The notes below the pieces were generated by a model that made no database searches, had not been told where the DNA came from, and saw nothing but the letters and a program-made list of their open reading frames with translations. A program made the position numbers and the translations under genes. Shown one piece after another: positions 3,735 to 31,089 of a DNA stretch of 64,000 bases; within the stretch, counting starts at the first letter, position 1, and each line of letters opens with the position of its first letter. Where the stretch lies: sequence record ON286972. The stretch is one strand, 5' to 3'. The DNA is from Escherichia phage A4.

Positions 3735-3735
3735 T

Positions 3736-7154: not shown

Positions 7155-7236
7155 TAGAATAGATTTAAAGTACTATTGCACGGTGATAGTACTTTATAAT
7201 AGGATTTTATTCATACATCAACGATGGGGTAACAGC

Positions 7237-9453: not shown

Positions 9454-9462
9454 AAAAAGTAC

Positions 9463-9490
9463 TTGCAATTAGTTTTTAGTACTGTATAAT
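9463..9490 (+). promoter_or_regulatory. class A promoter
   Basis: TTGCAA 9463-9468, AGTACTG then TATAAT 9485-9490; G-rich hairpin follows. Confidence 0.55.
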
Positions 9491-12552: not shown

Positions 12553-12571
12553 AAATATTATCACAGTACTA

Positions 12572-12600
12572 TTGACATAGTTTGATAGTACTGGCATAAT
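12572..12600 (+). promoter_or_regulatory. class B promoter flanked by inverted AGTACT half-sites
   Basis: CAGTACTAT-TTGACA-17 bp-CATAAT, with ATAGTACTG inside the spacer. Confidence 0.6.
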
Positions 12601-12633
12601 AGATTTTATCAAGACAACTAAGAGGAAACAAAA

Positions 12634-12846
12634 ATGGCTATCATTACTAAAATCAAAGTAAACAAAACACTGGTTAAGCTGGAACAAGTGAAAGCAGGTT
12701 ATAAAGTATCTTGGTGCGGTATGTATCGGACGTTCGCAGAGGTTGACGATGCAATCAAGTACTACACTGATACGGTTGCTAACTTTGTTCGTGCTGATGT
12801 AGTAATGGCAGTGGCAACACATAAAGCAGCGAAAGAAAGTAAGTAA
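12634..12846 (+). CDS. hypothetical protein
   Basis: 70-aa ORF; SD AGAGGAAA. Confidence 0.7.
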   Translation: MAIITKIKVNKTLVKLEQVKAGYKVSWCGMYRTFAEVDDAIKYYTDTVANFVRADVVMAVATHKAAKESK

Positions 12847-12865
12847 AATTATTATCACAGTACTA

Positions 12866-12894
12866 TTGACATAGATTGATAGTACTGGCATAAT
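12866..12894 (+). promoter_or_regulatory. class B promoter
   Basis: Near-identical copy of the 12572 cassette. Confidence 0.6.
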
Positions 12895-12937
12895 AGATTT
12901 TATCAAAACAACACATATTAATTTAAGGAATACTAAA

Positions 12938-13282
12938 ATGGCTAACATCAACACTATCGCATCACAAAATATCAACCTGTCTTCTGTTGAAGTTGTACAT
13001 ATTGCCGCTCGGCGTTGGTTCCAGGCTTCATATGGTAACACTTATTTCTCTTTAAGTGTAGACGTTGAAATTGATGGTAATTTTATTGAAGTAGTAAACG
13101 TGCCGTTCCAATATGGATACGGGGATCACTTTGACACTGTAGCAATGGAAGAATTTAGCAAGGTTATTAATATGGAAGGTAAAGAGTTTTTACGCGGTTC
13201 TTATCTTTCCCGTTTTTGCCGTGACAATAATATCACTGTTTACAGTTCGGTAACTGATGTTAAACGCAAAAAAGATCTTTAA
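12938..13282 (+). CDS. hypothetical protein, paralog of gene at 18785
   Basis: 114 aa; shares GNTY...YGYG and C-terminal DVKRKKD with 18785..19108. Confidence 0.7.
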   Translation: MANINTIASQNINLSSVEVVHIAARRWFQASYGNTYFSLSVDVEIDGNFIEVVNVPFQYGYGDHFDTVAMEEFSKVINMEGKEFLRGSYLSRFCRDNNITVYSSVTDVKRKKDL

Positions 13283-13362
13283 TTAGCTTTACTTTATGCA
13301 GATACTTTGATATAGTGTCTGCATAGGGGAAAGAAATTAAATTAACTTAAGAGGATAGTATA

Positions 13363-13632
13363 ATGAAAAATATCAGTACTTTAATCGATGCAGGTACGCA
13401 TGTTCGTCGGTCTATGGTTGCAACCAGCACTACAAAACAAGTAGCAAGCGGTTATCTTGTATTTGTACACGATGGAAAACTCCTGGAACGTTCAATCAAT
13501 TTTGATGTTAAGAACAATTGTCGTTTTATTATCTTTAAGCGTGAGCAATATAAAATTGATTTACCAGCGAAGCCCATTAGCGGGGCGTACAACGTGCAAT
13601 CATTGTTTGAGCGTCAACCATACACCTATTAA
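13363..13632 (+). CDS. hypothetical protein
   Basis: 89-aa ORF; SD AAGAGGA. Confidence 0.65.
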   Translation: MKNISTLIDAGTHVRRSMVATSTTKQVASGYLVFVHDGKLLERSINFDVKNNCRFIIFKREQYKIDLPAKPISGAYNVQSLFERQPYTY

Positions 13633-13683
13633 TCAAAACAACGTTAGCGGTTGATTTGGGCCGCTAATTTTGAGGATAATACT

Positions 13684-13854
13684 ATGAATGTTAATCAAGT
13701 ACTAAATGAAGTTGAAAGCATCATTAAACCAATGAAACGTATTGATGCTATTCCTACGCCGGAAGAATGCAGACTATACGAACAATACAGCGTAGAACAA
13801 GCCCAGGCGATGGCCCGTATCCGTCCGGTTGCTAGTACTGATAAGGCGGCGTAA
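13684..13854 (+). CDS. hypothetical small protein
   Basis: ATG 13684 after GAGGA SD. Confidence 0.55.
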   Translation: MNVNQVLNEVESIIKPMKRIDAIPTPEECRLYEQYSVEQAQAMARIRPVASTDKAA

Positions 13855-13897
13855 TATTCTTACTGTACAGGATAAGATCGACATCTTAAAGGTTAAT

Positions 13898-14065
13898 ATG
13901 TATGTGATTGATGCCGTACCTGGTAAAGTATTTGCATACGATGATTCTAATCGCAGTCCTTTCTATTGTAGTCATGTAGTTGGATACGTGCCGTTAGCGT
14001 ATGTTATTGAAAGAGTGGTTGATGCAGCATACAATCATTTTTTAGAAAATAATACTTGCAATTAG
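13898..14065 (+). CDS. hypothetical small protein
   Basis: ATG 13898 after AAAGG. Confidence 0.5.
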   Translation: MYVIDAVPGKVFAYDDSNRSPFYCSHVVGYVPLAYVIERVVDAAYNHFLENNTCN

Positions 14066-14083
14066 TTTTTAGTACTGTATAAT
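14056..14083 (+). promoter_or_regulatory. class A promoter
   Basis: TTGCAA 14056-14061, TATAAT 14078-14083. Confidence 0.55.
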
Positions 14084-14137
14084 GTTTTACATCGAGGGGG
14101 GGGGAAATGGTTCTCCCCACTAATTAAGGAATATGAA

Positions 14138-14284
14138 ATGAAAGCATCAAAAAAGAGTAATACTAAGAAAGCATGTTCACCTTTCGCTGGGGTATTCCCT
14201 TTACGTTTCGTTGATGAAGTGGTTTCCTACCCGCCGGGCCTTACTCCTGAGATGGTAGAAAGTTTGCGTAAATCTAAAAAATAG
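14138..14284 (+). CDS. hypothetical small basic protein (48 aa)
   Basis: Hand-translated MKASKKSNTKKACSPFAG...; SD TAAGGAA. Confidence 0.5.
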   Translation: MKASKKSNTKKACSPFAGVFPLRFVDEVVSYPPGLTPEMVESLRKSKK

Positions 14285-14287
14285 TAC

Positions 14288-14315
14288 TTGCAATTAGTTT
14301 TTAGTACTGTATAAT
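14288..14315 (+). promoter_or_regulatory. class A promoter
   Basis: TTGCAA 14288-14293, TATAAT 14310-14315; GCGGGAACTATTCCCGC hairpin follows. Confidence 0.55.
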
Positions 14316-14369
14316 GTTTTACATCGAGTGCGGGAACTATTCCCGCCTAACTCAAAGAGAGAAAATATA

Positions 14370-14612
14370 ATGGAAACCATTTTAATCAAAGACACTGCTA
14401 CTACTGTAACTTATGATAATGATTGTATTATCCCTGGCACTGATTACGGCGAACGTGTACCCGTTCAAGTCGAGATTGATACTACATACATTGACCAGGC
14501 TGAAAAGTGTATCACTATTGTTATTGGTGAATATCGTTTTCTACCAGAAGAGATCCAAAAATGGCAGTATATGATTGACCGTGCGAAATTAGTCGCACAA
14601 AGTTTAAAATAA
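14370..14612 (+). CDS. hypothetical protein
   Basis: ATG 14370 after AAAGAGAGA SD. Confidence 0.65.
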   Translation: METILIKDTATTVTYDNDCIIPGTDYGERVPVQVEIDTTYIDQAEKCITIVIGEYRFLPEEIQKWQYMIDRAKLVAQSLK

Positions 14613-14693
14613 TACTTGCAATTAGTTTTCAGTACTGTATAATGTTTTACATAGAGGGGGGAAATGGTTCTCCCCGATACTAGGAGAATCAAA

Positions 14694-14846
14694 ATGAAAC
14701 AATATAATGCTCGGTTTGATGTTACTATCGGCAACGGCAAAGGTCAATTTTCTTTCAGTACTCGCCGCAGTTATACAGAAAACTTCCTGCGTAATTGTGC
14801 ATTGACCGCCGCACAAATTAAACATTACTTCCAGGCTAAAAAATGA
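14694..14846 (+). CDS. hypothetical small protein
   Basis: ATG 14694 after TAGGAGA SD. Confidence 0.6.
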   Translation: MKQYNARFDVTIGNGKGQFSFSTRRSYTENFLRNCALTAAQIKHYFQAKK

Positions 14847-14932
14847 AATCATTGGCTTATTACAGTTCGGCGGTGATCGGTGCATTGATCGCGGCATTGT
14901 TAGTAACCTATCTATTCTTTATGGTGATTTAA
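14843..14932 (+). CDS. 29-aa hydrophobic peptide (single predicted TM helix)
   Basis: ATGA overlap with upstream stop; MKSLAYYSSAVIGALIAALLVTYLFFMVI. Confidence 0.45.
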   Translation: MKSLAYYSSAVIGALIAALLVTYLFFMVI

Positions 14933-15070
14933 ATGAATCCTAACGGTTTAATTTACAGTACTCCTAAAACGAAAGCAGATAAAGCGAAAGCACGTAAAGC
15001 GAAAGTAAAGGAGTACATCAAGCAAGGCATGACGCGAAAAGCAGCAGTACTAAAAGCTAAAAATAAATGA
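14933..15070 (+). CDS. hypothetical small Lys-rich protein (45 aa)
   Basis: ATG immediately after TAA of the upstream peptide; MNPNGLIYSTPKTKADKAKARKAK... Confidence 0.45.
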   Translation: MNPNGLIYSTPKTKADKAKARKAKVKEYIKQGMTRKAAVLKAKNK

Positions 15071-15155
15071 AAAAAGTGGTTGACTTCGGTCAGCCATTTT
15101 GCTATTATATATTCATTGAGAGATAGCTCACTAGCCCACAGGGTGCGGAAGTGTA
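15071..15155 (+). repeat. composite hairpin/promoter/conserved-box module, copy 1
   Basis: A-run, hairpin with TTGACT -35 in its arm, 17 bp, TATTAT; then box AGCCCACAGGGTGCGGAAGTGTA. Confidence 0.55.
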
Positions 15156-15189
15156 AATAAAATATATCAATCTAATAAGGAGTACTACA

Positions 15190-15372
15190 ATGTTTAAACC
15201 AATCGAACTAGCGGCATCACATATCATCGGTAAACCTGCCGTTATCATACGCCAGGAAGACGTAAACCTATGGATCATCTATCTAGACATGAAAGAGATT
15301 GAGCGTCACGATGATTTCAAATCAGCGTCAATTGCGTATGATATGGCGTTATGTGAGTATCAAAGAGATTAA
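15190..15372 (+). CDS. hypothetical protein
   Basis: 60-aa ORF; SD TAAGGAG. Confidence 0.65.
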   Translation: MFKPIELAASHIIGKPAVIIRQEDVNLWIIYLDMKEIERHDDFKSASIAYDMALCEYQRD

Positions 15373-15392
15373 AAGTATTTTGCAAAAAGTAC

Positions 15393-15420
15393 TTGCATTG
15401 TACTTAGAATCAAGTATAAT
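15393..15420 (+). promoter_or_regulatory. class A promoter
   Basis: TTGCAT 15393-15398, TATAAT 15415-15420; GGGGAAACGGTTTCCCC hairpin follows. Confidence 0.55.
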
Positions 15421-15472
15421 GTTTTACATAGCAAGGGGAAACGGTTTCCCCTGGTAACTAAGGAAACATATC

Positions 15473-15814
15473 ATGACTATTGCAATTGCTCAATCTAACT
15501 TTGAAAACGAATTCATCGCTCAGGCACTGCGTTTAAATGATGGTCGGGCCGAAATCAATTACGGTTTCAATTCAGGCGGTTGTGAAAACTATCAGTACTT
15601 TATAACTGCTGATGGCGGTGTCCTGGGTATCAATACAGTTATTGTAAACATTCAGAAAATTAATTTCAATGATCCAGACGATAGCCAGTTTTACATTGTA
15701 GGCGTTGACGTGAACTATGAGGATGACTCACTAACTGATGATTGCACTGGAGAGAAGTTAGAAAGTGCATACGGTGAAGATGATTATCAGTCCGGTCCAG
15801 AAGATTTCGAATAA
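15473..15814 (+). CDS. hypothetical acidic protein
   Basis: 113-aa ORF; SD TAAGGAAA. Confidence 0.7.
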   Translation: MTIAIAQSNFENEFIAQALRLNDGRAEINYGFNSGGCENYQYFITADGGVLGINTVIVNIQKINFNDPDDSQFYIVGVDVNYEDDSLTDDCTGEKLESAYGEDDYQSGPEDFE

Positions 15815-15827
15815 TATTAAAAAATAG

Positions 15828-15855
15828 TTTGACAATAGATTATAGTACTGTATAA
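15828..15855 (+). promoter_or_regulatory. sigma70-like promoter
   Basis: TTGACA 15828-15833, TATAAT 15850-15855; hairpin GGGAAGTACCAGTACTTCCC follows. Confidence 0.55.
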
Positions 15856-15916
15856 TAGTTTACATCAAGGCACGGGAAGTACCAGTACTTCCCTACTAAC
15901 AAAGAGAGAAAACAAA

Positions 15917-16129
15917 ATGGCTAATATCCGCACTGTACTGAAAAATGCAAAACAAGTTTTATTTTCTGATCATGAAAATTTCAACAAGGATATCACAGGC
16001 GTTCGGAATATCAAAGATGTAAAAAATGTTATGGGTATCTATTGCAATATGAAACGTGTTGGTACTTTCGGCGACAAGGTACTATACCAGGCAGGGGATT
16101 ACAATTTTACACTGACTATCATTAACTAA
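15917..16129 (+). CDS. hypothetical protein
   Basis: 70-aa ORF; SD AAGAGAGA. Confidence 0.7.
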   Translation: MANIRTVLKNAKQVLFSDHENFNKDITGVRNIKDVKNVMGIYCNMKRVGTFGDKVLYQAGDYNFTLTIIN

Positions 16130-16148
16130 AAATATTATCACAGTACTA

Positions 16149-16177
16149 TTGACAAAGATTGATAGTACTGACATAAT
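16149..16177 (+). promoter_or_regulatory. class B promoter
   Basis: CAGTACTAT-TTGACA 16149-16154, CATAAT 16172-16177. Confidence 0.6.
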
Positions 16178-16220
16178 AACTTTTATCAAGACAACGCATA
16201 TTAACTTAAGGAATACTAAA

Positions 16221-16400
16221 ATGGCTATTATCGCAAAAACTGAAATCATCGGTCTGGATTCTATCATCATGACGTTTGAAGAACAAAAAGGTATGTATGT
16301 AGTTTCCTATGGTGATTATGTTCGGGAGTATGAAACGGTAGACGAAGCCTTTGAAAGTTACATTCGCCAGGTGAATAAAGCATACGACGACTACCGCTAA
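16221..16400 (+). CDS. hypothetical small protein
   Basis: ATG 16221 after TAAGGAA SD; weak resemblance to 12634 gene (MAII...). Confidence 0.6.
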   Translation: MAIIAKTEIIGLDSIIMTFEEQKGMYVVSYGDYVREYETVDEAFESYIRQVNKAYDDYR

Positions 16401-16427
16401 AATATATTACCAGTACTATTAAAGATA

Positions 16428-16455
16428 TTGACAACGTTTGATAGTACTGTATAAT
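16428..16455 (+). promoter_or_regulatory. class B-like promoter
   Basis: TTGACA 16428-16433, 16-bp spacer, TATAAT 16450-16455. Confidence 0.5.
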
Positions 16456-16499
16456 AAGTTTTATAAACAGTAGTTAACTTAACCTAAGAGAGAAACAAA

Positions 16500-16643
16500 A
16501 TGATCGCACTGGATTCATTCATCGACGCAGTACTGGCAAAAACTGGCGAAGATCTGACCGCAGAACAATACGCAATGATCGAACAATGCCAGCAAGACGG
16601 TAAATCGGTGAAAGATACTGTTAAGATTATCCGCAAGATGTAA
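16500..16643 (+). CDS. hypothetical small protein (47 aa)
   Basis: Hand-translated MIALDSFIDAVLAKTGEDL...; SD AAGAGAGA. Confidence 0.5.
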   Translation: MIALDSFIDAVLAKTGEDLTAEQYAMIEQCQQDGKSVKDTVKIIRKM

Positions 16644-16649
16644 GATTAT

Positions 16650-16680
16650 AGCCCACTGGTTAACGCTGGTGGGCTTTTTA
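16650..16680 (+). terminator. rho-independent terminator
   Basis: Stem AGCCCAC/GTGGGCT then TTTTT. Confidence 0.65.
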
Positions 16681-16763
16681 GTATATACCTATCCGATAGT
16701 ACTACAAAATAGATTAGCTCGTTAGAATGCGATTGAGAGCGTTTAAATAAGTACTAAAAAGTA

Positions 16764-16791
16764 TTGACAGTACTGAAAGATAGTGTATAAT
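16764..16791 (+). promoter_or_regulatory. sigma70-like promoter
   Basis: TTGACA 16764-16769, TATAAT 16786-16791. Confidence 0.55.
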
Positions 16792-16840
16792 GTTTTATAT
16801 CAAGGGGAGGATAACCCTTCCCAGTACTGAGGAAAACAAA

Positions 16841-17029
16841 ATGGAACAATTATCAAGTATTTTAGTACAAGATGAATACGGCAATCCAGGAAGTGCTATC
16901 ATTGTTCGGGGTAATAAGGCAACATTTGTTATTGCTGGTGGACCTGTACAGCGTAGCATTAAAAACAATGCCGTTACTATTAATAATGTACGCTATCGTT
17001 TAGATAAAGAATTAATTCATAAACTTTAA
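16841..17029 (+). CDS. hypothetical protein
   Basis: ATG 16841 after TGAGGAAAA SD. Confidence 0.65.
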   Translation: MEQLSSILVQDEYGNPGSAIIVRGNKATFVIAGGPVQRSIKNNAVTINNVRYRLDKELIHKL

Positions 17030-17115
17030 AAAAGTACTGGACAATAGATTATAGTACTGTATAATAGTTTACATGAAGGGGAGAAATGATTCTCCCCAGT
17101 ACTGAGGAAAGAAAA

Positions 17116-17328
17116 ATGCAAGGTCAACTAATCGTTCGTAAATGGTCTGATACTAACGAAAAACCGTGGGATGTACAATACATCGCCCCCAATGGTGAAT
17201 CCAGATATCAACCTGGCGTAACGCATAGTACTGAGCAATTCGCCGCTGCTCACCGTGAACGCCTGTTACAATCCATGCAGCAAGGCTTCGGTGAAAAATT
17301 CATCCAAGATCATTGGCTGAAAGATTAA
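17116..17328 (+). CDS. hypothetical protein
   Basis: ATG 17116 after TGAGGAAAGAAAA. Confidence 0.65.
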   Translation: MQGQLIVRKWSDTNEKPWDVQYIAPNGESRYQPGVTHSTEQFAAAHRERLLQSMQQGFGEKFIQDHWLKD

Positions 17329-17336
17329 AAAAGTAT

Positions 17337-17364
17337 TTGACAAAGTATCACAGTACTGTATAAT
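17337..17364 (+). promoter_or_regulatory. sigma70-like promoter
   Basis: TTGACA 17337-17342, TATAAT 17359-17364; hairpin GGGGAGAAGTTTTCTCCCC follows. Confidence 0.55.
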
Positions 17365-17415
17365 TAATTACATCAAGGGGAGAAGTTTTCTCCCCACCAT
17401 ATAAGGGTAACAGTT

Positions 17416-17505
17416 ATGCACATGAATCCGTTCATAGTAGTAATTGCAATCATTATGGCAGTACAGGCCGTATTAGTTTACTTAAGCAAAGCAGGAGTTA
17501 TCTAA
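17416..17505 (+). CDS. 29-aa hydrophobic peptide (single predicted TM helix)
   Basis: MHMNPFIVVIAIIMAVQAVLVYLSKAGVI; SD TAAGGG upstream. Confidence 0.45.
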   Translation: MHMNPFIVVIAIIMAVQAVLVYLSKAGVI

Positions 17506-17506
17506 A

Positions 17507-17680
17507 ATGATCCATGTAGAATTGTCAGTACTGAAAGATCTGTTTTATCGGATGGGTACTACTGGCGAATATCCGAAGGGTGATACCGCAAAACTTTTTG
17601 TATCACTCGACTTATGGCAACGCGAACAATTAGTAACGTCCTGGCGTAAAGGTAAAGCCGACAAGGGGGTCGTAGCATGA
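17507..17680 (+). CDS. hypothetical small protein (57 aa)
   Basis: ATG 1 nt after upstream stop; MIHVELSVLKDLFYRMG... Confidence 0.45.
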   Translation: MIHVELSVLKDLFYRMGTTGEYPKGDTAKLFVSLDLWQREQLVTSWRKGKADKGVVA

Positions 17681-17826
17681 AAGAATACATTTTCGAAGTT
17701 ACGTTTTTGGGTAAAGGTATGCATCAACTGATACGGTCCAGCGGATACAGTGTTAACCAGGCGTGGAATAACTTAAAACAAATGTACCCGAACGCTATCA
17801 CATATCGCAACCCTCGCGAGGCATAA
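17677..17826 (+). CDS. hypothetical small protein (49 aa)
   Basis: ATGA overlap; MKEYIFEVTFLGKGMHQL... Confidence 0.45.
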   Translation: MKEYIFEVTFLGKGMHQLIRSSGYSVNQAWNNLKQMYPNAITYRNPREA

Positions 17827-17835
17827 AATAAATTG

Positions 17836-17918
17836 AAAAAAGGGATTGACTCCGGTCAGTCCCTTTGCTATTATATACGCATAGACAAAAACTAGCCCAC
17901 CGGGTGCATAAATGTATC
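17836..17918 (+). repeat. composite hairpin/promoter/conserved-box module, copy 2
   Basis: Hairpin GGGATTGACTCCGGTCAGTCCC 17842-17863 (TTGACT 17846-17851), TATTAT 17869-17874, box AGCCCACCGGGTGC. Confidence 0.55.
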
Positions 17919-17974
17919 TATTGTTTGCTGGTGGCCTGTATTGTCTAGTACTGAAAACTATTTTAAAAAAGTAC

Positions 17975-18002
17975 TTGCATTGTACTTAGAATCAAGTATA
18001 AT
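17975..18002 (+). promoter_or_regulatory. class A promoter (first of tandem pair)
   Basis: TTGCAT 17975-17980, TATAAT 17997-18002. Confidence 0.55.
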
Positions 18003-18007
18003 GTTTT

Positions 18008-18085
18008 ACATCAGGACGGGGAATGAAACAAGTAACCCCGTTAAGTAGTCCAGGAGTAAGACATACGAAAACCTCCCCTGATAAA
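18008..18085 (+). other. conserved ~80-nt structured leader / candidate small RNA (copy 2)
   Basis: Near-identical to 8107-8185, with compensatory-looking changes. Confidence 0.4.
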
Positions 18086-18090
18086 ATAGT

Positions 18091-18118
18091 TTGACAATAG
18101 AAAGTAAACGAGTATAAT
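18091..18118 (+). promoter_or_regulatory. second promoter of tandem pair
   Basis: TTGACA 18091-18096, TATAAT 18113-18118. Confidence 0.55.
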
Positions 18119-18150
18119 ACTTACATCAACCACTGATAAGGAAACATAAA

Positions 18151-18426
18151 ATGCGGATTCTACTGACAGCTAACGAAATCGAACAAGTACTGACTACTAA
18201 CCTGCAAGACTGGAAACGTGAAGCAGATATCCAGGCGGTTCAATGGCTTAACGATAAGTTAACGCCGGATGACTTAAGCAAGATTGTAGATCCTCAATTC
18301 TACGAAGATATTCACGACACCGCGTTAAGCGTCGAGGATGTACTTGATAAGCACTACATTGATACTGATTTACAGGTTTACGGTCGTAAAAACTTTATCA
18401 CTATTCACGACATTTACAATACTTAA
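18151..18426 (+). CDS. hypothetical acidic protein
   Basis: 91-aa ORF; SD TAAGGAAA. Confidence 0.7.
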   Translation: MRILLTANEIEQVLTTNLQDWKREADIQAVQWLNDKLTPDDLSKIVDPQFYEDIHDTALSVEDVLDKHYIDTDLQVYGRKNFITIHDIYNT

Positions 18427-18513
18427 GTATTGACAAAGTATCTTAGTACTGTATAATAGTTTACATCAAGGCGGGGAAATGGTTCCCCTCCTAACTAAAA
18501 GAGAGAAATTAAA

Positions 18514-18696
18514 ATGGCTAAGTGCACTATCTGTAAGAAAGAAATCGTATTAGTTCCAAGTGCCCGTGAACGTGCCGCTCGGTTCGGTGGCAAAGCGTCA
18601 GACTATACAAAAATGTTTACTGCCCATGCAGATTGCCAGGTAGCAAAACGTTCACAAGAAAGCGTAGAATTAATGCGTAAACTTTCCAAAAAATAA
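18514..18696 (+). CDS. small Cys-containing protein, possible zinc ribbon
   Basis: MAKCTICKK...HADCQ; own promoter and GGCGGGGAAATGGTTCCCC hairpin upstream. Confidence 0.65.
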   Translation: MAKCTICKKEIVLVPSARERAARFGGKASDYTKMFTAHADCQVAKRSQESVELMRKLSKK

Positions 18697-18784
18697 GTAT
18701 TGACAAAGTATCTTAGTACTGTATAATAGTTTACATCGAGTGAGGGGAAACGGTTCCCCTCCTAACAAAGAGAGAGAAATAAAA

Positions 18785-19108
18785 ATGGCTATGATCCTTA
18801 CCCAGAAAGTAGAACTGAAAATTGTAACCTCCTTTGACATTAAAGTTAATCGGTGGACTGATTCACACGGCAATACTTACCACTCTTGCTACGTGTCTGC
18901 TTTGATTGGTGATCGCTGGGAGGATTTAGGACATGAAACCTTTACTTACGGTTACGGCACACAAGGCGAATACACGGGCTTGGAGATCATTAAAGAAACG
19001 GTTATAGGTTTCAACCCGAAAGAAAAAGTTATTCATCAAATAGAAAAAGAGATCAACAAAGAAATAACAGTTCGCTACAACGATGTAAAACGTAAGAAAG
19101 ATATGTAA
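18785..19108 (+). CDS. hypothetical protein, paralog of gene at 12938
   Basis: ATG 18785; shares GNTY, YGYG and terminal DVKRKKD with 12938..13282. Confidence 0.65.
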   Translation: MAMILTQKVELKIVTSFDIKVNRWTDSHGNTYHSCYVSALIGDRWEDLGHETFTYGYGTQGEYTGLEIIKETVIGFNPKEKVIHQIEKEINKEITVRYNDVKRKKDM

Positions 19109-19130
19109 TAGAATCCATTTAAAGTACTAT

Positions 19131-19159
19131 TTGACATTGCCCAGATAGTACTTTATAAT
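19131..19159 (+). promoter_or_regulatory. class B promoter
   Basis: AGTACTAT-TTGACA 19131-19136, 17 bp, TATAAT 19154-19159; the paralogous site near 7176 has a 13-bp spacer. Confidence 0.5.
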
Positions 19160-19203
19160 AGACTCTCGCTTGTAGTACTAACTTAACTAATAGGATGTAT
19201 ACC

Positions 19204-19599
19204 ATGATTACTAAATTCTACGCTACCCGTGAAGCTGCCCGTATTGTTGCACGCGAGGAAGGAGCAGCATTTAAAGACATGGGCACGACCGCACCGAAAG
19301 GTCAACGCTGGGCCGTACAGTTCAAAGAAATCTCTGATATTGTGAATTCACCTGAGCCAGTACTGACAGCAGCAGAACAGAAGAAAGCTGATGAACTGTC
19401 AGCAGTACTTAACGCTCAAGATGAATTTATCGCTGGTTCTGATATTAAAGTACAGGTAAATTCGAATGCATGGACTCACGCGGATCACCTGGCTAACCTG
19501 AAGCGTCCAAGTGAACTGATTCGCAACAAACGAGAGATCCGTCATGACCGCAAGGGAAACCGTGTTACCGTATACAGTAAACGCCGCCAGGTTATCTAA
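19204..19599 (+). CDS. hypothetical protein, paralog of gene at 7237
   Basis: MITKFYATREAARIVAREEGAAFKDMG...HDRKGNRVTVYS. Confidence 0.65.
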   Translation: MITKFYATREAARIVAREEGAAFKDMGTTAPKGQRWAVQFKEISDIVNSPEPVLTAAEQKKADELSAVLNAQDEFIAGSDIKVQVNSNAWTHADHLANLKRPSELIRNKREIRHDRKGNRVTVYSKRRQVI

Positions 19600-19621
19600 T
19601 AACTTGCAGTACTAACAACAC

Positions 19622-19646
19622 GGCGGGATCAGTTCCCGCCTTTTTT
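19622..19646 (+). terminator. rho-independent terminator
   Basis: Stem GGCGGGA/TCCCGCC, loop TCAGT, then TTTTTT. Confidence 0.7.
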
Positions 19647-19661
19647 ATAGGATAAACTAAA

Positions 19662-19916
19662 ATGATTAAGGTACAACTATCTAAAGATAATATCTTGCGG
19701 GTACACTATAAAGCCCCACAGAGAATCATCACAAAGGCCGTACAGCTTGCTAATGAGTTTATTAATGGTAATCTATTACCGAGGAAGTTAAGCAACGGAA
19801 AACTGCGTGTAATCGACGTGGACACCAACAACAGAATAGTAATCGAGAATACCGGAAAGATAAACCTATATGAACACCAACAATATAATAAGAAAATAAA
19901 ACTAATATCACGTTGA
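19662..19916 (+). CDS. hypothetical protein
   Basis: 84-aa ORF; SD TAGGA. Confidence 0.65.
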   Translation: MIKVQLSKDNILRVHYKAPQRIITKAVQLANEFINGNLLPRKLSNGKLRVIDVDTNNRIVIENTGKINLYEHQQYNKKIKLISR

Positions 19917-19970
19917 CAGTACTCAAATGTTTTAGTACTATGTATCTATACCAACACGGGGAGTAACAAA

Positions 19971-20189
19971 ATGAATTTATCTAAAGTCGAAAAGAAAACT
20001 ATTGATGTAGCTATCCAACATGGTTACACCTTTCGTAATGATTCACATTTTACCAATTTTCAACAAGGCCAACGAACTATTAAAAAACTAATTGACAAAG
20101 GTTTATTAGTTAAAGTAGATAACGGTAACGGCGTGGAGTATCAGCCAACACAAGACGCATTATCTTTAAAGAAATATGCAATTATCTAA
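19971..20189 (+). CDS. hypothetical protein
   Basis: 72-aa ORF; TTGACAGTACT promoter element and SD GGGGAG upstream. Confidence 0.65.
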   Translation: MNLSKVEKKTIDVAIQHGYTFRNDSHFTNFQQGQRTIKKLIDKGLLVKVDNGNGVEYQPTQDALSLKKYAII

Positions 20190-20254
20190 TTGACAGTACT
20201 CAAATGTTTTAGTACTATATGTACATACCAACACGGAATAACTGGAGAAACAAA

Positions 20255-20482
20255 ATGATTAATATCTTAGAACGCATCAAAGAAACTACTACGCTGGTGG
20301 ATCTACTCAATGTACTGACTTTTAAAGTAACTCGGTTTAGTACTCCTGAATTTATCAACCTCATTGATAGTAAAGGTGAATACCGCATCACTATTGAAAA
20401 TGGTCGTGCTAATGTATTCAGTACTAAATCAGGTAAAACCGCAATTCATTCAGTAATTGCAAATAAAACTGTTGCAATCTAA
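20255..20482 (+). CDS. hypothetical protein
   Basis: ATG 20255 after TGGAGAAA SD; upstream region duplicates that of 19971. Confidence 0.6.
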   Translation: MINILERIKETTTLVDLLNVLTFKVTRFSTPEFINLIDSKGEYRITIENGRANVFSTKSGKTAIHSVIANKTVAI

Positions 20483-20551
20483 TTAGTACTAACATATAAT
20501 AGTCACATCAAGGCAGGGAATACCTCCCTGCTATCTTAAAGAGTAAATGCA

Positions 20552-21136
20552 ATGCGTAATTATACTAAATTCATCCGTACACTGGGAGAAATGGAAACTA
20601 ACAAAGAGATCCTTACAGCTTGTCGGTTGGCTGGTCTGGAGATCATCGGGGCCGGATCATCCCGTATCGTATTCGCTTTAAATGATCGGTTAGTGATTAA
20701 GGTCGCTAATTGTGACGCTGGCGTAGAACAAAATGAAACAGAATGTAAGGTATGGAATTTTTTAGATTATGACCGCCCTCACCTTAAACAGTACTTTGCA
20801 AAGGTGCATATGCATTTATGCGATCCTGATAATATGTTTATCGTTATGGATCGGTTGAGTACTGCAAGTAAAGGCAGTGTAAAGCACGTAAACGCGTGCA
20901 ATGAATTAAAGTACAATATTAAACGTAATGCCATTGAACGCCAGCACCGCTTTGCTGATGCACTACAACACGTTGATGATACATTATCAACACTAACGAT
21001 AAGAGATATCAGAAAACAGAATATCGGCCAGGATCGTAATGGCCTTATTAAAGTACTTGATTACGGTTTAACCCGCAATATCTGGAATCAGTACTATAAA
21101 AAGCGTGATGTAGAAGCAAGTAAGGTAACACGATAA
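20552..21136 (+). CDS. putative protein kinase-like protein (minimal kinase fold)
   Basis: IGAGSSRIVF (Gly loop), VIKV (Lys), DIRKQN (catalytic-loop-like), DYG (DFG-like) in kinase order. Confidence 0.45.
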   Translation: MRNYTKFIRTLGEMETNKEILTACRLAGLEIIGAGSSRIVFALNDRLVIKVANCDAGVEQNETECKVWNFLDYDRPHLKQYFAKVHMHLCDPDNMFIVMDRLSTASKGSVKHVNACNELKYNIKRNAIERQHRFADALQHVDDTLSTLTIRDIRKQNIGQDRNGLIKVLDYGLTRNIWNQYYKKRDVEASKVTR

Positions 21137-21145
21137 AAAAGATTA

Positions 21146-21231
21146 AAAAAGGGATTGACTCCGGTCAGTCCCTTTGCTATTATATATTCATTGAGAGATA
21201 ACTCACTGACCCATAGGGTGCGGAAGTGTAT
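21146..21231 (+). repeat. composite hairpin/promoter/conserved-box module, copy 3
   Basis: Hairpin GGGATTGACTCCGGTCAGTCCC 21151-21172, TATTAT, box CCCATAGGGTGCGGAAGTGTATC. Confidence 0.55.
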
Positions 21232-21359
21232 CTATTATATAAGTATTCAGTACTGAAAACTATTTGATAAAAAGTACTTGCATTGTACTTAGAATCAAGT
21301 ATAATGTTTTATATCGAGAGGGGGAAATGGTTCTCCCTGGTACATTAAGGAATAAAATC

Positions 21360-21581
21360 ATGACTACAATGACTTGCATTCACGCTTCAAACCTGCTTAA
21401 TGATGCGGCCTTTAATGTTGATTCAGAATATCAATGTTATCGGGATGAAAATAAAAAAGTTTTTGTAGTTGATAATAATGGTTTCCATATTGAATTACAA
21501 TCCGGTTTCACTGGTGTTGATGGTAAATCAGTGTGGGGCGTACAGGATGATAAAGGCACATATCATTTTAAACGTAATTAA
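21360..21581 (+). CDS. hypothetical protein
   Basis: ATG 21360 after TAAGGAATAAA; class A promoter and hairpin upstream. Confidence 0.65.
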   Translation: MTTMTCIHASNLLNDAAFNVDSEYQCYRDENKKVFVVDNNGFHIELQSGFTGVDGKSVWGVQDDKGTYHFKRN

Positions 21582-21667
21582 GTATTGACAAAGTATATCA
21601 TCAGTACTGTATAATAGTTTACATCAAGGGGAGAATAGTTCTCCCCAATACAATAAGGAATAAAATC

Positions 21668-22075
21668 ATGTCTACTACTACTAATCTCGCTCGGAACATC
21701 ACTAACGATAAAAATCATGCTGCAATGGTTGTAGCTTACATTGAAGCTATGCAATTCAGTACTGTACATAATGATAACGGCGATTACCTGGAAGATTATG
21801 AGTTATCTGATGAAGCACGTCAAGCGGCGGTGATTGCATGTTCTCGCTTCATTGAGAAACACGGTAATGATCTGGAAGTAGTTCGCGGTATGTTTATTGA
21901 TTACGGTTATGAGCAAGCTGGTCATGATCTGTTCCTTACCCGCGAAGGTCACGGAACTGGTTTTTGGGATCGTGGTTTAGGTCACTATGGCGATGTATTC
22001 ACGAAGTACTGCGAAGAAATCAACGTTTGCGATCCCTATGTAGGCGATGATAACTTAATCTATATGGGCGAATAA
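21668..22075 (+). CDS. hypothetical protein
   Basis: 135-aa ORF; promoter and GGGGAGAATAGTTCTCCCC hairpin upstream. Confidence 0.7.
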   Translation: MSTTTNLARNITNDKNHAAMVVAYIEAMQFSTVHNDNGDYLEDYELSDEARQAAVIACSRFIEKHGNDLEVVRGMFIDYGYEQAGHDLFLTREGHGTGFWDRGLGHYGDVFTKYCEEINVCDPYVGDDNLIYMGE

Positions 22076-22164
22076 AAGTATTTGACAAAGTATATCAGTA
22101 CTGTATAATAGTTTACATCAAGGGGAGAATAGTTCTCCCCACACCAATAAAAGGAAACAAAATT

Positions 22165-22437
22165 ATGTCCAGCTACTCCGCTACTATGATCATTAAAGAT
22201 ATGAACGGTAATCCTACTTCTGCTGGTGGATCATTTGGAAACATTAATTTAGATGGTCGGTTATCCATGCAATCAGCCATCGATGCAGCGAAAGAAGTTT
22301 TTAAGAATGAATGTACTGTTAGTAAGCTGGATTATATGGGATTCGCTATCGAGAAAACTAATCGTTTTGTGAACTACAAAAATCCACTGATGATTGATAC
22401 TAACCTGAAAGCTAACGAAGTGGGGTACTTATTATGA
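22165..22437 (+). CDS. hypothetical protein
   Basis: 90-aa ORF; SD AAAGGAAA. Confidence 0.7.
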   Translation: MSSYSATMIIKDMNGNPTSAGGSFGNINLDGRLSMQSAIDAAKEVFKNECTVSKLDYMGFAIEKTNRFVNYKNPLMIDTNLKANEVGYLL

Positions 22438-22625
22438 CAGTAGAAGAAGTTAAAAAAGTACTGGCAGTACTACGCTATCATAATCATTGCAAGGTGAAGA
22501 ATGATCCTGATTATGTTGATTCATCCCTGGAGGAAGACACATTAAACGCAATAAGCCATATGCAAACATTAGCAAAGCGTATGACCGAAAAGAATAGACC
22601 GGACTATATCGGAAATAAAATTTAA
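22434..22625 (+). CDS. hypothetical protein
   Basis: ATGA overlap with upstream gene; 63 aa. Confidence 0.6.
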   Translation: MTVEEVKKVLAVLRYHNHCKVKNDPDYVDSSLEEDTLNAISHMQTLAKRMTEKNRPDYIGNKI

Positions 22626-22711
22626 AAAGTACTTGCATTGTAGTTAGATTAACGTATAATGTTTTACATAGAGCGGGGGAATAGTTCTCCCGCCAGTCCA
22701 GGAGATACACC

Positions 22712-22975
22712 ATGAACACTATCGAAATCACTATCAATGCACACGTATACGACAACGTAGCACTGCAAACTACTATGACCGCTAATGATACCAGTACTTT
22801 GCGGAATACTGTTATTAGTGCCGTATGTGCTGCAATCGGTGATGTCGCCCTGGAAAATGCAAAACACGTAAACGATGGTTTCACTATGTGCAAACGTGAT
22901 AACGCAAAACATATCATCGTGGAAGGTTACGGCGGTGTAGAATTTAATGTTTATATGAAAAAAGTACTTGCATAA
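22712..22975 (+). CDS. hypothetical protein
   Basis: 87-aa ORF; promoter and GCGGGGGAATAGTTCTCCCGC hairpin upstream. Confidence 0.7.
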   Translation: MNTIEITINAHVYDNVALQTTMTANDTSTLRNTVISAVCAAIGDVALENAKHVNDGFTMCKRDNAKHIIVEGYGGVEFNVYMKKVLA

Positions 22976-23042
22976 TAACTAAAACAAAGTATAATGTTTT
23001 GCATAGGGGGAGATATCCTCCCCCACTAAAAGGAGTAATAAA

Positions 23043-23267
23043 ATGGCTAACTTTGATGAACTGATGCGGGAAGTAGCTAACCTGGCAGAAGAGAAGAAAT
23101 CATTCGATTCTATCTATAACACCGCTCACCGTGATTCAGTACTGGCATGTAACCAGGATCAAAAAGATGAACTAATCGCCACCTATCATGAAGCATGGAA
23201 GTACTACCGACAATGGGAGAAAGAAGAAAGAGAGTCTACCATTGACGGCCTCAATAATCTAATCTAA
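23043..23267 (+). CDS. hypothetical protein
   Basis: 74-aa ORF; hairpin GGGGGAGATATCCTCCCCC upstream. Confidence 0.7.
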   Translation: MANFDELMREVANLAEEKKSFDSIYNTAHRDSVLACNQDQKDELIATYHEAWKYYRQWEKEERESTIDGLNNLI

Positions 23268-23343
23268 AAGTTTTATTTCAGTACTATTGACATAGCTTGA
23301 TAGTACTGATGTAATAACTTTACTAACTACAAGGGGAAACATA

Positions 23344-23601
23344 ATGGATCAATTCACACAATATCGGGTAAATCCTCAAGCTATGGCCTACGTAGAAGAC
23401 CATAAAACGTTACCAGTACTGCAACCAGTTAAAGGCCATATCTATCGTGCAATGTCGTGGAGTGCGGCCCAGGATGGCTATAAAACCGTAGCCGTGGGTA
23501 TGTATTGCGGTAATGGTGAATGGTTTGATCCAAATAATCCGGTAGCCATTGACAGTACTGAAAAAATGAAATGGGCCGACTACATCGAAGATATTTCATA
23601 A
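23344..23601 (+). CDS. hypothetical protein
   Basis: 85-aa ORF; class B-type promoter at 23287-23315. Confidence 0.65.
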   Translation: MDQFTQYRVNPQAMAYVEDHKTLPVLQPVKGHIYRAMSWSAAQDGYKTVAVGMYCGNGEWFDPNNPVAIDSTEKMKWADYIEDIS

Positions 23602-25239: not shown

Positions 25240-25278
25240 TGAATTAAATGATTCAGTACTAAAACTATTAGTCAGAAA

Positions 25279-25309
25279 ATAATTGAGTCAAAAAATAATT
25301 GACTCAATT
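25279..25309. promoter_or_regulatory. 11-bp perfect inverted repeat, operator-like
   Basis: TAATTGAGTCA-9 nt-TGACTCAATTA, about 130 bp upstream of a TATAAT at 25444-25449. Confidence 0.45.
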
Positions 25310-25479
25310 AAAAAATGAACCAATACCTTATAACCCCAGTGATAATAACGACCTGTTATTATAACTTAGGGCAACTAGGGGCGGGTAATTGCTTAGCTCG
25401 TGTGAAGGGGTTCGTGGGTGGGACAAAAATGTTTCGTATGCTATAATCATATCGAATATGAACATAGCTAGGAGACACT

Positions 25480-26298
25480 ATGCAGATTACCCGTTGTGGA
25501 AGAACCTTCCACTACATGGAGCCTAAAGATGTACAGATGATATACACTGTTCATAATAAGAAAACTCCAAACTTTTATATAAATGAAATTAAGAATAAAC
25601 ATAAAGATTTAAAAATATACGGTTATAACATAACATCATCTAATGAGTTCAACGGTAACAAAACACTTGTTCTTTATGAATTAAAAGGTGTATTACTTAC
25701 AGCTTCAGCAAATCAATTGATGAAGTCAAAGGATATATCAAGAATTCGTTACCGAGATGATGATATCGTTTACGTCACTAATTGTATATTGTTAAACGAA
25801 GGAAAAAATATTAGGTGTACTGGTTTTACACCAGGAAAACAAACTAAAAATACAACATATGGAAATCATGAATGTCATTTGGTGTGTGATGATTGTAATA
25901 GGGAATGGTCAAAACTTATTACAAATATTGTATCAGATGACAGAGAAACCTTTTGTTATTGTGCACAAAGAATATCTTTTAAGGGTAAATGTGCAGCTTA
26001 CTTTTATGTTAATAAATTCACTTATAATGGTGAAACTGTTTACAAATATGGAATAGCTCACAACACAATCAAAAGACGCACACTGTTCAAAAACAATAAT
26101 GGATTAGACTCTGAAGAAATCATAGCTGTACTGTTTGAAAACTCATTGGAAGCTGCTGATCTTGAAGACATGTTGAAGTATACTAATTTAATTAATCATA
26201 TGCGTCATGTTAAAATAAAAGATGGCTGTACTGAACTCACCGATGAAGCTGGACTAAAATTTATTATGGAAGAACTTACTTACATGGGTAAGCTTTAA
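25480..26298 (+). CDS. hypothetical protein with Cys/His cluster and possible GIY-YIG-like segment
   Basis: 272 aa; HECHLVCDDC...FCYC cluster; FYVNK...YKYGIAHNTIKRR loosely resembles GIY-(10-11)-YIG...R. Confidence 0.6.
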   Translation: MQITRCGRTFHYMEPKDVQMIYTVHNKKTPNFYINEIKNKHKDLKIYGYNITSSNEFNGNKTLVLYELKGVLLTASANQLMKSKDISRIRYRDDDIVYVTNCILLNEGKNIRCTGFTPGKQTKNTTYGNHECHLVCDDCNREWSKLITNIVSDDRETFCYCAQRISFKGKCAAYFYVNKFTYNGETVYKYGIAHNTIKRRTLFKNNNGLDSEEIIAVLFENSLEAADLEDMLKYTNLINHMRHVKIKDGCTELTDEAGLKFIMEELTYMGKL

Positions 26299-26301
26299 CA
26301 C

Positions 26302-26330
26302 TTGACATCATGCCTCGTATGGGGTATGAT
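26302..26330 (+). promoter_or_regulatory. sigma70-like promoter at head of family B array
   Basis: TTGACA 26302-26307, 17 bp, TATGAT 26325-26330. Confidence 0.6.
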
Positions 26331-26364
26331 GTTTTTTCATATATGAACCTATGGAATTTGCCCT

Positions 26365-26562
26365 ATGCGTATTTTAACACAAGAAGAGCATCACGAAAGA
26401 CTTATCAATAACATGGCTATGATAATGTATAAGTCTCATAAACGTGGTAATGCCTATAAACGTGAATTAGTTATGGAACTATTCTTAGGAACTAACTTAC
26501 AAAATGAATATGTTAAACTATATGTAAAAGAGTTATGTTTAGAGATAAATGGTAAACTATGA
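26365..26562 (+). CDS. hypothetical small protein, paralog family B
   Basis: motif FLGTNLQNEY. Confidence 0.65.
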   Translation: MRILTQEEHHERLINNMAMIMYKSHKRGNAYKRELVMELFLGTNLQNEYVKLYVKELCLEINGKL

Positions 26563-26759
26563 AAATGCGTACATTAACCCAAGATGAATATCATCATATA
26601 CTACGTAAAAACACGGCAAGGATTTACCAAAGCAATGTGCATTTAGAAAGAGTTGAGTTGTACCTGTTGATTACGATGGGAACCAACTATCAGGAAGTGT
26701 GGGTAACTCACTATTTGGAATCTTTGAAAGCTGACATACGAGCGAGGTGCAAACATTGA
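26559..26759 (+). CDS. hypothetical small protein, family B
   Basis: ATGA overlap; motif TMGTNYQEVW. Confidence 0.65.
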   Translation: MKMRTLTQDEYHHILRKNTARIYQSNVHLERVELYLLITMGTNYQEVWVTHYLESLKADIRARCKH

Positions 26760-26965
26760 AAATCATAACACAGACACAAGCATTTGGTCGTATATTGAAA
26801 TACCTTGATGACATGATAGATATACATAGTGACCTCCCTAAAACTGTAATCTACGCCAAAAGAGCAGAATATCGCATGATGGCTGTACTGAACACAAACT
26901 TTCAGGAAGAGTATGTAAATGATTGGATTGGATTTTTAATTGAAGATATAAAGAGTAAACTATGA
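26756..26965 (+). CDS. hypothetical small protein, family B
   Basis: Probable TTG start (GTG at 26747 possible); motif VLNTNFQEEY. Confidence 0.5.
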   Translation: MKIITQTQAFGRILKYLDDMIDIHSDLPKTVIYAKRAEYRMMAVLNTNFQEEYVNDWIGFLIEDIKSKL

Positions 26966-27174
26966 TTATATTAACACCAGAGCAATATAGGAAACGTTAC
27001 AATTCTAAGCAGATTGAAATCTTGCTGATATATGCAGACAGGGATGATGTATACTTATCAAAAGTTATGGAAAAAGAATTACTTATGGGTGTCTTCTTAG
27101 GAACTGACCACCAGAAATCTTATGTCCAAGAGTATCTAATAGCTCTTGAGAAATACATCAGGAGTAAACTATGA
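26962..27174 (+). CDS. hypothetical small protein, family B
   Basis: ATGA overlap; motif FLGTDHQKSY. Confidence 0.65.
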   Translation: MIILTPEQYRKRYNSKQIEILLIYADRDDVYLSKVMEKELLMGVFLGTDHQKSYVQEYLIALEKYIRSKL

Positions 27175-27395
27175 ACTGCATTAATAACTTTGAATACGAG
27201 GCTCGCTCAAGGTGTGCATCTCAAAAAGAGAACCACATTTACTTCACTATGATGTACTTATCTTGGAATGAAATTGAAGAAATGGTTGCTGAAGTATGGC
27301 TGTTTGAATTCATGGGGACGCAGTATCAGAATAGGTTTGTGGGTGAGTATCTTAATGTTCTTATGAAACATATAGAAAGAAAGGGAATGAACTAA
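27171..27395 (+). CDS. hypothetical small protein, family B
   Basis: ATGA overlap; motif FMGTQYQNRF. Confidence 0.65.
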   Translation: MNCINNFEYEARSRCASQKENHIYFTMMYLSWNEIEEMVAEVWLFEFMGTQYQNRFVGEYLNVLMKHIERKGMN

Positions 27396-30733: not shown

Positions 30734-30735
30734 AA

Positions 30736-31077: not shown

Positions 31078-31089
31078 GAGTACTGAACC

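Follow-up and report, generated by a model that had tools for sequence, protein, structure and literature searches.

The window analysed here, 64,000 nucleotides (nt) of Escherichia phage A4 (record ON286972), carries a set of predicted early promoters built around the palindromic hexamer AGTACT, which is the subject of this report. Judged by alignment, the window corresponds to the left terminal-repeat early region and adjoining DNA of an Asteriusvirus, i.e., a 121Q/PBECO4-like ("Rak2-like") jumbo myovirus of E. coli. Its closest megablast match is phage BF17, with ~92% identity in patches and 88.9% identity across the aligned DNA. In the record of vB_Ec-M-J, a direct terminal repeat (DTR) of 21,525 bp (1–21525) is annotated at the left end. 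Alignment to BF17 places the equivalent of this left genome end near window position 4414, and a sign switch of the GC skew at ~4400 coincides with it; thus, window 4.4–25.9 kb would represent the terminal-repeat early region. It contains small plus-strand genes of unknown function, with promoter-bearing gaps between them.

A preliminary description of this DNA had singled out five promoter cassettes, termed class B, in which a 9-bp inverted repeat containing AGTACT flanks the −35 hexamer. A search of the window with the regular expression AGTACTAT.{0,1}TGACA.{6,10}ATAGTACT gave exactly these five, with matches at 12565, 12859, 16142, 19123, and 23280 (Table 1). Four of them read CAGTACTAT-TGACA-N7-ATAGTACTG, followed by CATAAT as the −10 element in three and by a deviant TGTAAT in the copy at 23279; the remaining cassette, at 19122, reads AAGTACTAT-TTGACA...ATAGTACTT-TATAAT. 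TTGACA, a 17-bp spacer, and CATAAT or TATAAT, the hallmarks of a σ70-type promoter, are found in four of the five, the −10 at 23279 being poor. In class B, the sequence AGTACTG-G-CATAAT also puts a TG at −15/−14, as in an extended −10, while in promoters reading AGTACTG-TATAAT the TG lies one base closer to the −10. The shortened site announced for the region before gene 7237 is indeed present, with its 13-bp spacer, and reads AAGTACTA-TTGCAC-13 bp-TATAAT; its BF17 homologue has a degenerate −35 that is effectively lost and retains both AGTACT copies. As for the inverted repeat, its presence is confirmed, but its length had been underestimated: the full repeat is TATTAT-CA-CAGTACTAT...ATAGTACTG-GC-ATAATA, so that a mirror image of the −10 sits upstream. 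Folded as single-stranded DNA, the arms give modest energies of −7.4 to −8.1 kcal/mol (z-scores −4 to −5.6). Allowing one mismatch at most, the 9-mer arm occurs 160 times in the window against 21.2 expected. Over ~110 bp, including the 5′ untranslated region (UTR), the cassettes at 12564, 12858, and 16141 hardly differ, and those at 19122 and 7168 form a second related pair whose downstream genes, 19195–19599 and 7237–7500, are paralogs (phrog_8127); the five copies are therefore not independent. The remaining genes downstream of cassettes fall into unrelated families.

Table 1. Positions of AGTACT-bearing promoters and associated features in the window.
Feature	Position	Strand	Remarks
Terminal-repeat early region	4414–25900	+	approximately DTR 1–21525 of vB_Ec-M-J; AGTACT density 6.7 per kb
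Short variant of class B	7168–7200	+	AGTACT at 7169 and 7188; −35-like TTGCAC; 13-bp spacer; TATAAT; before gene 7237–7500
Class B cassette 1	12564–12600	+	AGTACT 12565–12570; TTGACA 12572–12577; AGTACT 12587–12592; TGG-CATAAT 12595–12600; 70-aa gene 12634–12846
Class B cassette 2	12858–12894	+	near-identical to cassette 1, including the 5′ UTR; 114-aa gene 12938–13282
Class B cassette 3	16141–16177	+	−10 CATAAT 16172–16177
Class B cassette 4	19122–19159	+	AAGTACTAT-TTGACA-17 bp-TATAAT; AGTACT at 19123 and 19147; 134-aa gene 19195–19599 (phrog_8127)
Class B cassette 5	23279–23315	+	−10 TGTAAT 23310–23315, kept in BF17; 85-aa gene 23344–23601
Outlying variant	16411–16455	+	upstream AGTACT (16412) 9 bp further out; TTGACA 16428–16433; AGTACT 16443–16448; G; TATAAT
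Dual-site class, example	9458–9490	+	AGTAC-TTGCAA-N9-AGTACTG-TATAAT; copies 20 bp apart; class commoner than class B
Dual-site class, further members	10244, 14283, 17033		
Spacer-only class, example	18430–18457	+	TTGACA-N9-AGTACTG-TATAAT
Spacer-only class, further starts	12033, 15829, 17337, 18700, 22082, 24056		
Spacer-only class, minus strand	8023→7995, 9898→9870	−	
Early gene, 89-aa basic protein	13363–13632	+	best conserved of the early proteins shared with RaK2; 97–100% identity within the genus, 74% in RaK2
Polar block L	25261–29250	−	palindromic AGTACT 0; AGTAC minus 9, plus 0; mostly CTGTACTG
Central segment	29750–31576		13 palindromic AGTACT, between the two polar blocks
Polar block R	31577–38869	+	palindromic AGTACT 0; AGTAC 56 on the plus strand, in all three frames

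The placement of AGTACT is not peculiar to class B. A consensus scan for σ70-type promoters yielded 39 in the terminal-repeat region; in 21 of these, AGTACT begins 15 bp after the first base of the −35, i.e., 9 bp past the hexamer. A second copy, at −5 (AGTAC-TTGnnn) or at −7 (class B), accompanies 12 of the 39, and eight have both copies. No spacer copy was found in the 23 promoter-like matches in the rest of the window. The string TTGACA-N9-AGTACT occurs 14 times against 0.01 expected, two of the occurrences being minus-strand promoters. These two promoter-like sites (8023→7990 and 9898→9865, built as TTGACA-N9-AGTACTGG-TATAAT or CATAAT) are strong and oppose the direction of all annotated genes. 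In the early region of RaK2, which belongs to a different genus, the spacer copy is present in 23 of 37 promoters and the upstream copy in 12 of 37. Two RaK2 promoters are of class B, reading CAGTACTA-TTGACA-ACGGGTGAT-AGTACTG-C-TATAAT, and the bases between their AGTACT copies differ from the coliphage version. Since the same layout recurs across promoter classes and in RaK2, class B is one of several arrangements of a shared promoter architecture.

AGTACT is the commonest hexamer in the window, with 273 copies against 20.2 ± 4.6 expected. It exceeds a first-order model 13.6-fold, while its one-base variants do so 1.4- to 3.3-fold. Among the 64 six-base palindromes, it is the only enriched one (10.3-fold in 164 kb of window plus vB_Ec-M-J sequence). 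Its density is ~9 per kb in intergenic DNA and 3.5 per kb in genes, compared with 0.3 per kb by chance, and ~70% of the sites lie within genes with no −10 nearby. The intragenic sites number 184, against 65 ± 7 after synonymous-codon shuffling, and are distributed over the reading frames as 82, 37, and 65. Even the encoded proteins are affected: Ser-Thr dipeptides occur 142 times (67 expected), and 82 of the 142 are encoded as AGT-ACT (21 expected). Between the window and BF17, 138 of 158 sites (87%) are intact in both, compared with 61% for hexamers generally. Collectively, these observations indicate that AGTACT is maintained by selection at the DNA level. A codon or composition artefact is ruled out by the synonymous shuffles and by the higher intergenic density, and a repeated mobile element was rejected as the source, the intragenic copies showing no conservation beyond ±3 bases. 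The flanks of the hexamer are themselves symmetric, with C at −1 and G at +6 in ~50% of sites and T at −3 and A at +8 in ~47%, giving the extended palindrome T-n-C-AGTACT-G-n-A. To judge from its letters, this looks like a dimeric binding site of ~12 bp.

Palindromes are otherwise strongly avoided in this DNA. GCGC is absent against 99 expected (window plus vB_Ec-M-J 50–100 kb and 150–200 kb), and in the window and vB_Ec-M-J sequence at least 12 six-base palindromes are missing, including AGCGCT, AGGCCT, CAGCTG, CCATGG, CTCGAG, CTGCAG, GACGTC, and CGTACG. GATC stands at 0.57-fold, and AGTACT is the sole exception to the avoidance.

The enrichment extends over the whole genome of vB_Ec-M-J, in which four 50-kb segments hold 206, 144, 115, and 106 sites, including sites in minus-strand tail and baseplate genes. 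It was also found, at 6- to 18-fold across all enriched relatives sampled, in phages of other hosts: RaK2 (Klebsiella; 11.4-fold, top hexamer), GAP32 (Cronobacter; 64 copies per 30 kb), CBB (Pectobacterium; 48 against 6.2 expected), fHe-Yen9-04 (Yersinia; 57 against 5.3 expected), Munch (Salmonella; 37 against 6.0 expected), and XbC2 (a Mimasvirus with Xanthomonas as reported host; 18.5-fold). The enriched set thereby spans Asterius-, Alcyoneus-, Mimas-, and Eneladusvirus and Munch-like phages. The distant relative PA5oct, from Pseudomonas, has one copy in 30 kb, T4 three in 25 kb, and E. coli K-12 three in 50 kb. The enrichment is thus a trait of a phage lineage rather than of coliphages in general, and this lineage-bound distribution makes a phage-encoded reader likelier than a host one. 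In PA5oct (100–130 kb), the most enriched hexamer is another palindrome, CTGCAG (14 sites, 5-fold), which is wholly absent from the coliphage sequence.

Two blocks adjoining the terminal repeat depart from this pattern and contain AGTAC in a single orientation; elsewhere, the word is palindromic. In block R, the 56 AGTAC copies compare with 6.2 expected, 46 of them read AGTACA, CAGTACAG occurs nine times, and GTACT is absent against 3.2 expected. Block L and the centre form one tandem array of paralogous 65–96-aa genes. At the same x-Val-Leu position, block L members read xxT-GTA-CTG and central members xxA-GTA-CTG, a difference that points to region-specific selection on a wobble base in the array. 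The blocks have opposite orientations and diverge from a 1.8-kb central segment with normal palindromes, which would fit a replication- or processing-related polarity. Equivalent blocks are present in BF17 (28–36 kb, AGTAC 50 vs. 0; 20–25.5 kb, 2 vs. 13) and in 121Q (161.9–169 kb, 40 vs. 0; 155.6–159 kb, 0 vs. 6), and RaK2 shows no clean equivalent. Strand-specific base-calling errors at modified motifs were rejected as the origin: three genomes, 84–92% identical and sequenced independently, have these blocks at matching positions. The array comprises ~25 paralogous genes (window 26365–32467) with the motif ...LGTNYQ... (phrog_4148) and overlapping start and stop codons, and it directly follows the terminal repeat.

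The preliminary description had proposed an operator overlapping the promoter, bound by one dimeric regulator through two 9-bp half-sites, and the co-repression of a sub-class of genes. The part concerning the overlap survives: selected palindromes resembling protein sites flank the −35 and fill the spacer of σ70-type early promoters, at positions in which a repressor would compete with RNA polymerase. The part that confines it to class B, with one dimer gripping both arms and co-repressing these five or six genes only, is highly improbable, even though four copies have perfect 9-nt arms and the pattern is limited to five occurrences. Each arm already holds a complete palindrome (AGTACT; extended, TnCAGTACTGnA), and the distance between copies varies (19, 20, 22, 24, and 31 bp), which shows that the copies are individual sites. 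Moreover, the same hexamer occupies the same spacer position in promoters of several classes and recurs across the genome, three of the five cassettes duplicate one ~110-bp segment, and the downstream genes belong to unrelated families.

What is observed is the motif, the selection acting on it, its set places in promoters, and its retention throughout the clade; from these, we infer protein binding and repression. In this reading, to which we assign a probability of roughly 0.45, each AGTACT would by itself form the whole site of a symmetric DNA-binding protein, which would block early promoters and mark phage DNA. The class B cassettes would act as early promoters for the host σ70 polymerase. 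One AGTACT copy occupies spacer positions 9–14 bp after the −35 hexamer, touching the extended −10, and the second lies against the upstream edge of the −35. As the copies are 20–22 bp apart, i.e., about two helical turns, they face the same side of the helix, and a bound protein would bracket the −35 and compete with σ70-RNA polymerase. Given that 21 of the 39 promoters carry the spacer copy and that the window alone has 273 copies, any such regulator would act on most early promoters, beyond class B, and would see about a thousand further sites. The effect would be joint control, probably shut-off. The genomic copies are 35–100 times denser than in host DNA, so the protein would concentrate on phage DNA, possibly resulting in silencing, compaction, or discrimination of self from host. 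A global regulator of early promoters is favoured because the hexamer is placed where repressors act and because a strict core is surrounded by weaker symmetric flanks.

Several results weigh against this reading. The strand-polar blocks are hard to square with a simple symmetric dimer, and early-promoter control leaves ~2 AGTACT per kb inside late structural genes unexplained. The early region of XbC2 is very dense in AGTACT, yet none of its scanned promoters has the spacer copy; promoter occlusion can therefore not be a universal role of the motif. Literature searches for promoters or transcriptomes of the clade found no transcript, expression, or binding data. Among ~60 early proteins, no DNA-binding Pfam or PHROG family was detected, and the scans returned only a ParE-like toxin domain, domains of unknown function (DUFs), and weak kinase-like matches. 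A 72-aa protein (19971–20186) is confidently modelled as a winged helix, with an AlphaFold predicted local distance difference test (pLDDT) of 92 and Foldseek matches to AspA, MecI, and MarR at template modelling (TM) scores of 0.78–0.83. It was nevertheless rejected as the reader because of its distribution among phages, being confined to Asteriusvirus and unrelated 146-kb phages and absent from RaK2, GAP32, and CBB. The gene preceding it (19662–19913) encodes a ParE-like toxin domain (PF24732, E = 6e-11; 67% identical in RaK2), and the two may form a toxin–antitoxin-like pair in the early region.

For the 134-aa protein encoded behind the 19122 cassette (19195–19599), the AlphaFold model was mediocre and Foldseek gave no fold match, and PDB sequence searches with three candidate proteins returned no match. 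About 20 early proteins are common to the window and the RaK2 early region, and the best conserved is the basic 89-aa protein listed in Table 1. Its homologues comprise 69 records, from Escherichia, Klebsiella, Salmonella, Erwinia, Yersinia, Serratia, Cronobacter, Pectobacterium, and XbC2, with no Pseudomonas record among them. In records that start at the physical end, its gene lies 2–9 kb from that end. By the match of its distribution to the enriched clade, this protein is no more than a lead as the candidate AGTACT reader. A broader but unlikely proposal is that AGTAC/AGTACT serves as a lineage-specific "self" mark in unmodified DNA, read by a conserved immediate-early protein such as this one, whose gene is among the first few kb from the injected end. 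The phage would then handle its genome and host DNA differently during transcription, protection, or processing, and the single-orientation blocks beside the terminal repeat would give direction, e.g., around a replication or processing landmark.

Other explanations assign the hexamer to enzymes acting on DNA. It is rather improbable that AGTACT is the target of a phage DNA methyltransferase, the methylation state tuning promoters or protecting and marking the genome. The motif is a strict and invariant six-base palindrome, as type II methyltransferase targets typically are; an N6-adenine methyltransferase of PF05869 (Dam family) is encoded by the genus just outside the window, and two methyltransferases were reported in the RaK2 paper. 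However, PF05869 is so widespread in phages (1368 records), with no particular link to the clade, that its co-occurrence was discarded as a clue. The symmetric preferences three bases outside the hexamer point to a larger binding site, there is no known reason for a ten-fold rise of a methylation target, and digests of fEgEco12 DNA agreed with in-silico patterns, ScaI not being among the enzymes. For a type II restriction-modification target, avoidance or neutrality would be expected in genomes exposed to the enzyme, but AGTACT is enriched 10- to 18-fold. It is also quite improbable, and marginally more so, that the working element is the 5-mer AGTAC in a strand-specific sense, recognized on single-stranded or translocated DNA by a motor (primase, helicase-nuclease, or other) in the manner of Chi or KOPS (FtsK-orienting polar sequences), with the palindrome representing two overlapping, opposite copies that serve both directions. 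This would account for the two single-orientation blocks (56 vs. 0 and 0 vs. 9), conserved in 121Q and BF17, and for the even, lineage-specific spread of the motif over early, middle, and late genes on both strands. It fails to account for the constant placement of the motif in promoter spacers and beside the −35, for an early-region density twice as high, and for the symmetry of the outer flanks, and RaK2 offers no clean polar block.

An intrinsic promoter or DNA-structure element, in which RNA polymerase or sigma would read the spacer as an extended −10 TG or the arms would form a cruciform or hairpin, is very doubtful. AGTACTG-G-CATAAT does provide the canonical TGn, and the arms do fold as single-stranded DNA with the energies given above, but the TG is out of register by one base in AGTACTG-TATAAT, most sites are intragenic with no −10 nearby, and a stem of 9 bp closing a 12-nt loop is poorly suited to extrude as a cruciform. 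The arms do not match an N4-type hairpin promoter for a virion RNA polymerase (5–7-bp stem, 3-nt loop, read on single-stranded DNA): the stem here is 9 bp (17 bp when imperfect), the 12-nt loop holds the consensus −35, and the folding amounts to only ~−7.5 kcal/mol. No hairpin-reading virion polymerase is known from these phages. Least probable of all is the exploitation of host SlmA, recruited or titrated by the phage to affect cell division. The core of the E. coli SlmA site (GTGAGTACTCAC) is identical, AGTACT, and nearly all hosts of the enriched phages are Enterobacterales, the Pseudomonas relative lacking the motif. Yet T4, on the same host, is not enriched, and XbC2, reported on Xanthomonas, is enriched 18-fold. 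SlmA binds a 12-bp palindrome with central AGTACT and requires G1, T2, and a purine at position 3 (PMC3020112). The phage sites lack these flanks and disfavour G at the adjacent position, −1 being C in 49% and G in 7% of them, and the window contains no full match and only three half-matches to GTRAGYRCTYAC.

A promoter-embedded operator is a familiar kind of element. Like the LexA boxes, lambda-type operators, and TetR/Arc spacer sites of repressors that overlap σ70 promoters, the AGTACT copies are palindromes in the spacer and at the −35 edge, often paired on one helix face. They differ in having a core of only 6 bases (~12 with the weak flanks) and hundreds of intragenic copies, in a virulent phage with no known cognate repressor. 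The LexA box itself (CTGT-N8-ACAG) was rejected, since the half-sites are everted here (ACAG-TA-CTGT) and no promoter pair combines an 18-bp distance with the required flanks. The stoperators of cluster A mycobacteriophages and the scattered C1 operators of P1 offer a precedent for the repeated use of one operator over a genome, at promoters as well as inside and between genes. Those sites are asymmetric, 13–17 bp long, and number in the tens, and they bind the immunity repressor of a temperate phage, whereas AGTACT has about a thousand palindromic copies that shape codon and dipeptide usage. The p6 protein of phi29 has little sequence specificity, and TF1 of SPO1 depends on hydroxymethyluracil DNA. 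Both resemble the proposed AGTACT-binding protein as models of one genome-wide binder shutting early promoters in a terminal region, but specificity here would come from a strict hexamer in unmodified DNA. Uptake signal sequences (USS) and DNA uptake sequences (DUS), Chi, KOPS, and the single-orientation EcoP15I sites of T7 are asymmetric words tied to uptake, recombination, translocation, or restriction. They share with AGTACT an abundance far above chance, occurrence in coding DNA in all frames, an influence on protein sequence, and, in the two polar blocks only, strict strand polarity. AGTACT differs in being mostly palindromic and in having fixed promoter positions. A lineage-wide, protein-shaping palindrome with fixed promoter positions and strand-polar exceptions has no close described counterpart, and in the papers on the clade that could be searched or read, the AGTACT motif, the promoter architecture, and the polar blocks are not described.

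If AGTACT is a protein-recognition mark, it would open a first way into the control of early genes in a large group of jumbo phages that is being isolated ever more often, whose members are therapy candidates and whose early genes are nearly all of unknown function. It would also present the rare case of a virus that otherwise removes palindromes but keeps one of them in about a thousand copies, strongly enough to alter its own protein sequences. The strand-polar blocks could reveal a landmark of replication, packaging, or injection.

Some further features of the region deserve mention. A second conserved promoter class has no AGTACT and reads AAAAAAGGG(G/A)TTGAC-TCCGG-TCAGTCCC-TTTGCTATTAT; it is a hairpin class in the repeat region (GGGATTGAC...), with −10 elements at window 15103, 17869, 21178, 23937, and 52582. 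It also occurs in RaK2 (locus L082 coordinates 7468, 12837, 15483, and 17357), and several members are present in XbC2. Its −35 lies inside a GC-rich hairpin, so that it resembles a terminator–promoter unit. Eight Chi sites (GCTGGTGG) are located at window 11726, 16665, 16934, 17927, 20293, 22222, 23800, and 24022, all on the plus strand and all within the terminal repeat, with none on the minus strand; this is the orientation that RecBCD would meet if it entered the repeat at its right end. Upstream of the repeat start, window 1–4400 has a GC skew of −0.15, a high AT skew, tandem 59–69-aa paralogs, and AGTACT at 7.7 per kb. Finally, a 272-aa endonuclease-like gene (phrog_681; window 25480–26295) lies about where the terminal repeat ends on its inner side, inside the block that is free of AGTACT, at a position where only smaller genes are annotated in BF17 and vB_Ec-M-J.

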